DNA of 38,284 bases from a virus (lineage: Duplodnaviria; Heunggongvirae; Uroviricota; Caudoviricetes): positions 1-38,284 of the IMG/VR virus record IMGVR_UViG_2778261592_000009, one strand, 5' to 3'. The notes beneath the pieces were generated by a model that worked only from the letters and a program-made list of their open reading frames with translations, ran no database searches and had not been told where the DNA came from. The translations under genes and the position numbers were made by a program. Numbering within the stretch: position 1 is the stretch's first letter; each line of letters starts with the position of its first letter. Below, in pieces: positions 11,311 through 13,491 of the stretch.

Positions 11311-11816
11311 ATGAAGTACCCAACAGTTATTGTCAATGGTGTGTCCGTTCGTGTTGATGAGGATGGACGCTACAACTTAAACGATCTCCATGCAGCAGCA
11401 GTTGCAAATGGAGAGGCTACAGAGCAACAGCGCCCAAGCCAGTTTTTGCGTAGCGCGCAGATAAAACGCTTTATAAAAGCACTTTGGAACAAATTCAGCC
11501 ACTTAAAATAATCAAAGGTGGTGCAGAACCAGGTGTGTGGGGTGTTGAACTTCTGGCAATCAGATATGCAGCATGGATTAAGCCGGAATTTGAAATCGAA
11601 GTTTATGAAGTTTTCAAAACGGTTGTCCGTCTCGGTGTTGGCGCAATGTCCCGTCTGAATAGAATCGATCACATCATCAATACTGAAACCAAAGCGATAA
11701 GCCAGTGCGCAAGCCAAATGGCTAAGTGGGGCGTTGGTGGGCGAAAAAGATTGCTTCATGTTGCACGTGAGAGAGCGGCAAATGAAGTGCAAATGTATTT
11801 GCCCGGAATGGTGTGA
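11311..11816 (+). pseudogene. KilA-N-domain protein interrupted by a frameshift (ORFs 11311..11511 and 11484..11816)
   Basis: First ORF ends FLRSAQIKRFIKAL; second frame continues EQIQPLKIIKGGAEPGVWGVELLAIRYAAWIKPEF; together they read as one KilA-N-like domain; frames differ by 1 nt within 11454..11509. Confidence 0.5.
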
Positions 11817-11922
11817 TTCTGCTGGTTAATCCGGGCAGCCCTTCAGTGAGGGCTGCAATAATGCTTTATTCGTATGAAGACGAAGGGTAATCTGTAGGCT
11901 CTGATTATCTAATGGAGGGTTT

Positions 11923-12129
11923 ATGATGGACAATTATTTTAAATCTGGCGATAACCGAGTATCTGATTCTGAGCACCAGCGTTTAGTGGCTACCAAAGCA
12001 GCTCTTGAAATTATCAAGGCCGCCGTATCTGCCCCTACCGATGCGAAAAACGTGTCTTATGATTTGGAGGAGGCAATAAAATACCTTCCGCGGTTGACTG
12101 ATGCTATTCAGGAAACGATTGGTAAATAG
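11923..12129 (+). CDS. hypothetical small protein (68 aa)
   Basis: GGAGGG RBS 5 nt upstream of ATG; no recognisable family. Confidence 0.5.
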   Translation: MMDNYFKSGDNRVSDSEHQRLVATKAALEIIKAAVSAPTDAKNVSYDLEEAIKYLPRLTDAIQETIGK

Positions 12130-12340
12130 CATTTCGTTTTAGTTTTATTATTTCACCTTAAATATGAGTAAGATTAAGACAAAGCTACCTACGAGTAGCT
12201 TTTTTAATGGCTATAGCATTAGGAACATAATCATGTAAAAACCGGACAAAGAAGCCATCGGACGGCGTCTAGTAAAACAGTAATCAAGATATGCAATACT
12301 GAAACGCCGCCTGGTATTCTCTGAGATAAAGAAGAATTAA

Positions 12341-12919
12341 TTAAGTATTAGTCATTGAATGTTTTATGTGCTCGAATAATGTGAGAGCATCATCAGATAA
12401 TTCACGCCGAGAGATCCAGTCATGCTCATTCAATTGCCATGCAAGGCCTAAAGCTTGATTCAATCCTGGATATGCAATTGGTGAGTCATCAGAGTTACTA
12501 CTTGCGGCTTCCATTTTGGCTAATGGAATTCTTAAACGATTGATCTTACGTTTATAGATCTGTATCTCATTTCGCACATGATTCAATGGAGATCCATCAT
12601 TTTTTGCAAATTGATCTAATGTTCTTACTAGTTCATACATTCCTAAAACCCAGAGATAGGAAGAAGTGATATGATCACTTAAGTCGTGCATTGGGTTTTT
12701 TAGATATCCAGTCTTGATGAGTTCAGCATCATCATTAACTAGGCGAGAATCTAGTGCACCTAGATGTTGAAGTGTTATTGTCGACCATTGATTGTGGGCC
12801 GTAATTGCATGGGAGCAGTCAACCCACCTCTTGTTTCTGTCTGCATCAAATAATCCAGCAATGTAAGCTCTAAGCCTACCATTGTGGGGCTTCTTTAATT
12901 CCTCAGACAAATTATCCAT
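12341..12919 (-). CDS. hypothetical protein (192 aa), antisense orphan between lysis and packaging modules
   Basis: ATG at 12919 with AGGAGA 6 nt upstream (maximal ORF to 12946 starts at GTG and would overlap the terminase start); AT-rich; no recognisable motifs. Confidence 0.6.
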   Translation of the reverse strand: MDNLSEELKKPHNGRLRAYIAGLFDADRNKRWVDCSHAITAHNQWSTITLQHLGALDSRLVNDDAELIKTGYLKNPMHDLSDHITSSYLWVLGMYELVRTLDQFAKNDGSPLNHVRNEIQIYKRKINRLRIPLAKMEAASSNSDDSPIAYPGLNQALGLAWQLNEHDWISRRELSDDALTLFEHIKHSMTNT

Positions 12920-12939
12920 TTGATCTCCTAGGGTACTAT

Positions 12940-13491
12940 ATGGCACTCACCGACAAGCAAGAAATGTTCTGTCGCGAGTACCTCATCGATTTAAACGCCA
13001 CGCAAGCGGCTATTCGGGCGGGGTACAGCGCAAAGACAGCTAACCGTACCGCATCCGAAAACCTGTCAAAACCTGACATCAAGTTAAGAATCGCCGAACT
13101 GAAAGCGCAACGCAATGATCTTGTTGGTATTAATGCAGAATATGTACTTAATCGCCTTATTGAAATCGACCAGATGGATGTGCTTGACATTCTCTTGCAA
13201 AACGGTGAGCTAAAACCCATTAAAGACTGGCCTAAGGTATGGCGCACAACGTTATCAGGAATGGATGTCGTGGAGATGGCATCCGCAGATAGCGCCGCAC
13301 TCCTGAAGAAAATCAAATGGCCTGATAAGGTTAAAAACCTCGAACTTCTTGGTAAGCATGTTTCTGTTCAGGCGTTTAAAGACAACGTCAAAAATGAAGT
13401 GACTGGCGCTGATGGAGGACCAGTCAGAACAGAAATTACCAACTTAACGCCGGAGCAGGCTGCAGAGGCGTATAGAAAAATGATGGGCTAA
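12940..13491 (+). CDS. terminase small subunit
   Basis: 183 aa; N-terminus [34 protein letters not shown] typical of Terminase_2-type small subunits; precedes large subunit. Confidence 0.85.

Follow-up and report, generated by a model that had tools for sequence, protein, structure and literature searches.

An exchangeable antisense gene next to the small-terminase start of a tailed-phage genome belongs to a large, unnamed protein family

We analyzed a virus record of the class Caudoviricetes (IMG/VR record IMGVR_UViG_2778261592_000009; the whole stretch of 38,284 nt is hereafter called the window) with respect to a minus-strand gene at 12341-12919. This gene is the exchangeable cargo of an antisense slot, hypervariable in content, next to the 5′ end of a small-terminase gene of the Terminase_2 type (terS); phages P22 and BTP1 have pid in the same slot. 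We have high confidence in the slot and in its moron architecture. The best explanation overall, in which the slot cargo would be expressed leftward, as judged by homology, and would have a stand-alone role in the lysogen, is put forward with moderate confidence.

An exchangeable antisense gene at the small-terminase start

The open frame of the gene spans 12341-12946 on the minus strand in the list of open reading frames (ORFs), with the stop codon at 12341-12343. Because homologues from other genera begin MDNLSEEL, we placed the start at the ATG at 12919, which gives a soluble protein of 192 aa and about 22 kDa; the ORF and its translation, the homologue N-termini, the dN/dS ratio and an AlphaFold2 model underlie this assignment. 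Direct reading of the sequence places a Shine-Dalgarno motif, AGGAGA, 4 nt 5′ of the ATG (12924-12929, minus strand), and GGAG or GGAA occupies the same spot ahead of other cargo genes of the slot. Comparison with the Enterobacter and Klebsiella orthologues gave dN/dS values of 0.13-0.33 (dS 0.24-0.57); the gene is real and under purifying selection, and is not a chance ORF.

At its 3′ end, the gene is convergent with a 68-aa ORF (11923-12129, plus strand) that belongs to PHROG 5901 (function unknown). At its 5′ end, its ATG lies head-to-head with that of terS (12940; Pfam Terminase_2, E = 2.6e-40) at a distance of 20 bp. GC content is 0.36-0.38 over 12050-12800 against about 0.50 in both flanks, and 0.389 in the gene itself. 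A preliminary description, made from the sequence alone, had reported a 192-aa minus-strand gene with an ATG at 12919 and an AGGAGA ribosome-binding site, convergent with the 68-aa gene and head-to-head with the small terminase, in an AT-rich patch. The ORF list and coordinates, the homologue N-termini, the sequence, the Terminase_2 match and the GC values bear out all of these points. Its span of 12130-12939 holds in part: the gene occupies 12341-12919, and 12130-12340 is a non-coding 3′ untranslated region with hairpins. Elsewhere in the window, a KilA-N gene (11311-11816) is broken into ORFs of 66 aa and 110 aa by a 25-bp deletion at about 11474; E. coli T28R and an otherwise identical IMG/VR contig (L085) carry an intact 176-aa KilA-N gene, and the split copy is either a pseudogene or an assembly error.

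In a pairwise alignment, the prophage of E. coli T28R, which is of the same type, matched the window without a difference as far as 12268; identity resumed at the terS ATG (12940). The interval 12269-12939, which differs between these otherwise identical prophages, is thus the exchangeable cassette. Its T28R counterpart holds an unrelated 182-aa antisense gene, and E. coli B, laboratory strains included, has the same alternative (WP_000762846.1; 6178-6726 in the T28R locus L015 and 1933-2481 in the E. coli B locus L082). By eye, this alternative product could be read as an R-S-E ADP-ribosyltransferase (YRG ... FCWTTD ... ENEF), an assignment unsupported by Pfam, PADLOC or the PDB. The same terS is present in 209 of 5426 complete E. 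coli genomes, and four further sampled E. coli prophages carried a 72-aa gene, a 90-aa gene, YodC plus DUF6953, and only an unannotated 62-aa ORF, respectively.

We searched IMG/VR with the exact 35-nt core of the terS 5′ end and obtained at least 120 viral contigs, 76 of them usable. All 76 had an antisense ORF of at least 45 aa starting within 160 nt. All-against-all BLASTP (E <= 1e-5) sorted this cargo into 27 mutually unrelated clusters, 17 of which had at least two members. On the 70 contigs with enough downstream sequence, cargo was longer (median 106 aa) than in shuffled controls (36.5 aa) and lower in GC content (median 0.40) than terS (0.50). Pfam matched 6 of the 27 clusters, mostly as DUFs, and PADLOC gave no match for slot cargo. 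Two cargo products from IMG/VR contigs L130 and L128 drew attention by eye: a 181-aa protein with FRNKRSHQ (Rx4H, HEPN-like), which had no match in Pfam, and a 150-aa protein with D...IQVK (PD-(D/E)xK-like).

Two marks of a moron are found at this locus, namely a deviant base composition (GC 0.36-0.39 against about 0.50 in the flanks) and replacement or absence of the gene among syntenic relatives (T28R, E. coli B, the further E. coli prophages and the 27 clusters). The preliminary description had proposed that this lysis-terminase junction be compared across related prophages and had likened the gene, by position, to the accessory gene bor. The comparison found unrelated antisense genes in the same place, and their presence between identical flanks, together with the homology to the pid moron locus of P22 set out below, supports an accessory gene in a bor-like position. 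In phage lambda, bor and lom are accessory genes in the late region near the lysis genes, with their own expression signals and deviant composition; the product of bor is a small lipoprotein of the outer membrane, made with a signal peptide. The gene in the window resembles bor as a late-region accessory gene of deviant composition near lysis genes, but its product is soluble, with a polar N-terminus, and shows neither a lipoprotein signal nor a sequence match to Bor; we rejected homology to Bor on the last two grounds.

The terS 5′ block, the P22 pid locus and predicted expression

The first 85 nt of terS (nt +1 to +85; 12940-13024) form a conserved block common to every phage with this slot; it was 92-100% identical in seven comparators, non-coding terS relics included, whereas the next 62 nt were about 60% identical in Pantoea and P22. 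The copies compared came from E. coli, Enterobacter, Pantoea, Klebsiella and P22. The block can fold into a long imperfect hairpin that starts right after the terS ATG, and it may serve as a recombination anchor, as an RNA element or in both ways.

Orthologues of the cargo gene in Enterobacter (86% identity) and Pantoea (74%) lie 20-21 bp from terS, in prophages whose lysis cassettes and large terminases differ from those of the window. The Klebsiella orthologue (81%) is separated from the real terS by about 4 kb but adjoins a terS relic truncated to 94 codons, and a 53-codon relic adjoins a homologue in IMG/VR (47%). Such relics accompany cargo in Klebsiella, in the loci L090/L091 and in P22; the cargo moves together with the terS 5′ end. 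In the Klebsiella prophages (L002-L007), the lysis-terminase interval is a multi-gene accessory island that includes Beta_protein (PF14350), a P4 cII-like gene and, at one of the loci, an Acb2/Tad1-type gene. Upstream of the antiterminator, these prophages have a pyocin S/immunity pair.

The first 60 nt after the terS ATG of the window were 96.7% identical to P22-like Salmonella phages, and the match lay beside the antisense gene pid, not at the terminase gene of those phages. Positions 40744-41006 of P22 (BK000583; 3000-3262 of our locus L079) are a pseudogenised N-terminal fragment of a Terminase_2 terS: the window terS matched them by tblastn (E = 2e-13 and 6e-13), the reading frame is broken by two stop codons and a frameshift, and nucleotide identity by blastn was 75% over 250 nt, rising to 92% in the first 85 nt. 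The pid promoter of P22, Ppid, is weak, with a -10 box (AATCCT) 181-186 nt and a transcription start site 174 nt upstream of pid, and no closer promoter is present (PMC8835761). Both the mapped -10 box and the start site fall inside the P22 terS relic, and the alignment shows the "exceptionally long" 5′ untranslated region and weak promoter of P22 pid to be the antisense face of a terS fragment. Neither of two papers on pid (PMC3573128, PMC8835761) mentions terminase; the former had classed pid as a moron whose place is taken in relatives by "no or another insert".

The two loci are alike in having an antisense gene between lysis/Rha-KilA genes and packaging genes, with a 3′ hairpin terminator and homologous upstream DNA; in P22 this DNA carries the mapped weak promoter and the long 5′ untranslated region, and in the window their predicted counterparts. 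They differ in that the window terS is intact and functional-looking, whereas P22 has a pseudogenised remnant here and its true gene 3 at another place. The cargo also differs: the 192-aa protein has no homology to the 86-aa Pid, and it and the Pid of BTP1 fall in separate clusters in all-against-all BLASTP (E <= 1e-5). Pid, the sole characterised cargo of the slot, derepresses the host dgo operon and is a modulator of host metabolism, not a defence protein (PMC3573128). By analogy, the 192-aa protein might bind a host regulator or metabolite and re-tune host expression in the carrier state or in lysogeny, with no direct effect on other phages. We consider this rather unlikely. The slot and the homologous promoter and leader shared with pid speak for it, as does most of the other cargo, which consists of small DUF proteins without a defence signature; so do the synteny with a STAS regulator in Verrucomicrobia and the fusion of one family member to PilZ, both described below. 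The lack of relationship to Pid weighs against it, the PilZ fusion is a single case, and conservation from archaea to enterobacteria makes a lineage-specific regulator an unlikely target.

A candidate promoter for the gene, weak and sigma-70-like, lies at 13087-13115 on the minus strand, within terS codons ~50-59 (-35 TTGCGT, 13110-13115; 17-nt spacer; -10 GATTCT, 13087-13092), and aligns with the mapped Ppid (TTGCTT-17-AATCCT). A consensus promoter scan called nothing at 13087-13115, which fits a weak promoter, and the hexamers persist in the terS relics and, Pantoea apart, in every intact copy. From the alignment with Ppid, we predict a transcription start site near 13080 and a 5′ untranslated leader of about 160 nt (12920-13080, minus strand) that aligns with the P22/BTP1 pid leader and has a folding z-score of -2.3. 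Over its whole length, this leader would be complementary to the start region of terS, from the ribosome-binding site through the start codon to the end of the first ~140 nt.

On the other side, two hairpins lie 3′ of the stop codon. The first (12261-12311, minus strand; RNA fold z-score -3.15) is followed by a U-rich tract, and a minus-strand terminator-like site was called at 12266-12254; the 3′ half of the hairpin lies in the flank shared with the T28R cargo, in which identity ends at 12268. The second (12182-12205) pairs AAGCTAC with GTAGCTT between A and T runs, as judged from sequence and fold; it is 100% identical in T28R and could terminate transcription in both directions. As it lies midway in the late operon, past the 68-aa gene, late transcription must read through it, presumably by Q antitermination. 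With these two hairpins and the terminator-like site, the gene has a terminator of its own, as expected of a moron. Rfam returned nothing credible in 11800-13400. The slot thus offers a fixed, predicted promoter and leader on one side and fixed terminators on the other, and its exchangeable part is 12269-12939.

Transcription of the gene would thus run leftward, against the late operon, from the weak promoter embedded in terS; the transcript would pass through the antisense leader over the terS start and end at the two hairpins. The pid gene is among the five most expressed genes of the BTP1 prophage, at more than 100 TPM (PMC7067206), and because the equivalent promoter is active in BTP1 lysogens, the prophage in the window should make the 192-aa protein. 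Head-on late transcription from pR′ should damp the gene during the phage's own lytic growth. A similar antisense arrangement damped by opposing transcription is the Tha/Ith "noncontiguous operon" of Staphylococcus aureus phages (PMC11087260), which differs in its phages, its position in the lysogeny module and its unrelated proteins; the mutual interference was demonstrated experimentally there, whereas for the terS slot it is inferred.

The position of the leader raises a further alternative, in which RNA matters more than protein: the antisense leader would regulate translation of its own terS or exclude phages that carry the 85-nt block, and the ORF would be exchangeable ballast. The near-identity of that block even in non-coding relics, its occurrence in at least 120 viral contigs and the moderate structure of the predicted leader are in line with such a role, and BTP1 offers a parallel in STnc6030, an antisense RNA against a late gene that mediates exclusion (PMC7067206). 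The conservation of the block may, however, reflect a recombination anchor or recent exchange, and Rfam has no match. Moreover, the ORF is under purifying selection and a wide family exists without a terS context, so the protein has a function of its own. We therefore regard the RNA alternative as improbable.

A large family of single genes in bacteria and archaea

The preliminary description had called the gene an orphan, a label that our searches refute. A word-indexed search returned 95 homologues of 160-240 aa from Enterobacter, Klebsiella, Pantoea, Serratia, Aeromonas, Vibrio, Marinomonas, Acinetobacter and many metagenomes. When 1.84 billion representatives were searched exhaustively with a profile, 905 clusters (50% identity) matched at E <= 0.001, 179 of them at E <= 1e-30, and among the best 150 of the 905 matches, the family domain covered nearly the whole protein. 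A scan of one genome per species placed the family in Cyanobacteria, Proteobacteria, Chloroflexi, Nitrospirae, Acidobacteria, Verrucomicrobia, Bacteroidetes and Saccharibacteria and in two archaea. Identity across phyla is 35-45%, and the GC content of the family gene is 39-43% in every host compared.

These proteins are labelled "hypothetical" in every source. Pfam scans of the query, of 41 members and of 134 members gave nothing significant; NCBIfam and PHROGs had no match to the 192-aa protein; PADLOC v2 returned 0 families at E <= 1 for it; and searches of the PDB by phmmer and with two profiles found no credible match. The sole profile match in the PDB searches, a plant gamma-terpinene synthase, fell from E = 0.0094 with 41 sequences to 0.17 with 134 and left the catalytic DDxxD region uncovered, and we attribute it to chance. 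A second profile search, in a collection of 5.8 billion proteins, added no annotated or multi-domain relatives, and a literature search by protein accession found no match. Among the members seen, only the metagenomic protein P0180 (278 aa) carried a second domain, a PilZ domain (c-di-GMP receptor; E = 9.4e-6) at its C-terminus. That the protein carries no recognizable motif, as first reported, accordingly holds across Pfam, PADLOC, PHROGs, the PDB and NCBIfam. The sensitive profile and structure searches recommended at that stage had a divided outcome: they uncovered a large unnamed family, while the named libraries were empty and the fold matches generic.

The N-terminus of the protein, MDNLSEELKKPHNG, is polar, the GRAVY is -0.57 and the maximum hydropathy over 19 residues is 0.67; from these values we conclude that the protein has no signal peptide or membrane segment, in agreement with the preliminary description on the signal peptide. 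Motifs common to 41 sequences are SYLWVLGxYELVRTL, RLRIPLAKxE, DSPIAYP and RRELSD. In 134 sequences, W32, W90, E96, R99 and W161 are invariant, and at least 90% of the sequences keep R28, D57, R128, R130, K135, D145 and R171; this alignment has no conserved His or Cys. An AlphaFold2 model built with the family alignment (pLDDT 87, pTM 0.83) is helical as far as residue 127; a loop (128-150) leads into three short strands (151-170), and a further helix forms the C-terminus. The loop (RLRIPLAK...DSPIAYP) is conserved in sequence and of low confidence in the model. Structural matches to the model, a helical bundle with a small beta unit, were to generic folds only. The product is a soluble 22-kDa protein with a predicted helical bundle, a flexible conserved loop, a three-strand beta unit and a C-terminal helix. 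The conserved charged and aromatic residues and the flexible loop suggest an enzyme or a binder of a universal ligand.

Membership in the HEPN superfamily of RNases was rejected because a conserved histidine is absent: the Rx4-6H motif is missing, with no His in invariant columns or in those conserved at >=90%, in either 41 or 134 sequences. The nearest pattern in the family is R130-x4-K135, and no Pfam HEPN model matched the query, the 41 members or the 134 members at E <= 1.

A comparison of 65 loci found no conserved neighbour or partner gene; members of the family are invariably solitary. Its settings are diverse. In enterobacteria, the gene lies at the lysis-terminase junction; in Acinetobacter, at a prophage end beside the integrase; in an Aeromonas prophage, among catalase, SOD, TIR, HNH and KAP-NTPase genes; in Serratia, in an island with HicAB and a primase; in Vibrio crassostreae, at the cargo end of a small element with integrase and Phage_GPA; and in Photobacterium, near GmrSD and HEPN genes on a contig encoding ParA/ParB. 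The V. cholerae homologue P0097 is a superintegron cassette (gene at 152-709, VCR/attC repeats at 89-125 and 703-829 of L098), and the array on this contig (1-5266) continues with an acetyltransferase and other cassettes. In soil Verrucomicrobia, the gene is in stable synteny with a STAS protein and ordinary metabolic genes. The homologue in the archaeon Methanohalophilus levihalophilus (L223, 4785-6561) overlaps the end of a 199-aa unknown gene that itself follows a NYN nuclease gene, and the locus looks like a three-gene operon. Small membrane proteins are encoded 3′ of the gene on the same strand in Klebsiella (L002, 8726-8965; 79 aa, two hydrophobic helices) and Aeromonas (L008, 6952-7455; 167 aa, about four); they are mutually unrelated and have no equivalent in the window.

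Integron cassettes offer a likeness for the slot as well: the V. cholerae homologue is a true cassette, and the terS slot likewise offers a fixed, predicted promoter and a fixed terminator to interchangeable single genes. Unlike an integron, the phage slot has no attC sites and no integrase, and exchange presumably proceeds by homologous recombination in the conserved flanks.

Some neighbours belong to toxin-antitoxin systems (HicAB, Gp49, PIN), helical bundles are common among immunity proteins, and one marginal Pfam match was to Rap1a immunity proteins (E = 0.13). These observations would suit an immunity protein or antitoxin orphaned from a former two-gene system. We judge this highly improbable: no partner recurs in the 65 loci, the Rap1a match is far below threshold and concerns 1 of 134 members, and 35-45% identity across phyla is rare for immunity proteins.

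The family is rare in phage genomes, with 10 loci in the 2.9 million viral contigs of IMG/VR, and common in chromosomes, including metagenome-assembled genomes without a phage context. This distribution bears on the idea that the protein serves counter-defence, shielding the phage or prophage from host immunity by, for example, binding a nucleotide signal or inhibiting an effector. A small, soluble, solo protein with three invariant Trp and several invariant Arg, Asp and Glu residues would suit ligand stacking, and an Acb2/Tad1-type gene lies about 600 bp away in one Klebsiella locus (L004). Against this stand the scarcity in phages and abundance in chromosomes, as well as the predicted expression in the prophage state, opposed by late transcription, which would be the wrong timing. 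A counter-defence role is thus quite unlikely.

A tentative anti-phage role and its wider meaning

The functional reading we favour, tentatively, is that of a lysogen-expressed, stand-alone anti-phage protein that would act by exclusion or abortive infection of infecting phages. It is possible rather than probable. The solo mobile lifestyle and the inferred expression in the prophage state fit it, and the protein would then act alone, perhaps as an enzyme or a tight binder of a widely conserved target. Solo defence proteins of prophages have precedents, such as the single-protein abortive-infection system HepS, a solo HEPN protein of prophage Gifsy-1 (PMC13043305), as do antisense genes nested in phage operons (PMC11087260). 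The solo gene also occurs beside TIR, HNH and KAP-NTPase genes in Aeromonas and near GmrSD and HEPN genes in Photobacterium. On the opposite side, PADLOC is empty and the neighbour signal is weak: the commonest Pfam family among 150 neighbour proteins was phage integrase (4), and about 6-8 of the 150 were defence-like, a count made without a matched background. The stable synteny in Verrucomicrobia would fit a cellular role better than mobile defence, identity of 35-45% across phyla is unusual for fast-evolving defence sensors, and the one characterised cargo of the slot, Pid, modulates host metabolism.

The category itself is not new, since loci of this kind (the lambdoid moron, specifically the pid locus) had been recognised before; the novelty lies in the cargo. 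A bolder proposal, which we regard as doubtful, is that the family represents new stand-alone anti-phage, or otherwise phage-directed, enzymes of uncharacterised fold, that the terS 5′ block is an integron-like platform for testing single ORFans, and that the leader may regulate or exclude terminase synthesis. A phenotype under phage challenge would add much to the interest of the locus, as would regulation of terminase by the promoter and leader embedded in terS.

The libraries and literature searched hold no description of this protein family, which is large, unnamed and moves solo by way of prophage slots, integron cassettes and other mobile elements. In living relatives of the P22 pid locus, the candidate promoter lies within an intact terS. 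The sharply bounded 85-nt anchor marks a reservoir of ORFans, with at least 27 families in 76 contigs, and thereby provides a ready list for screens of prophage dark matter.
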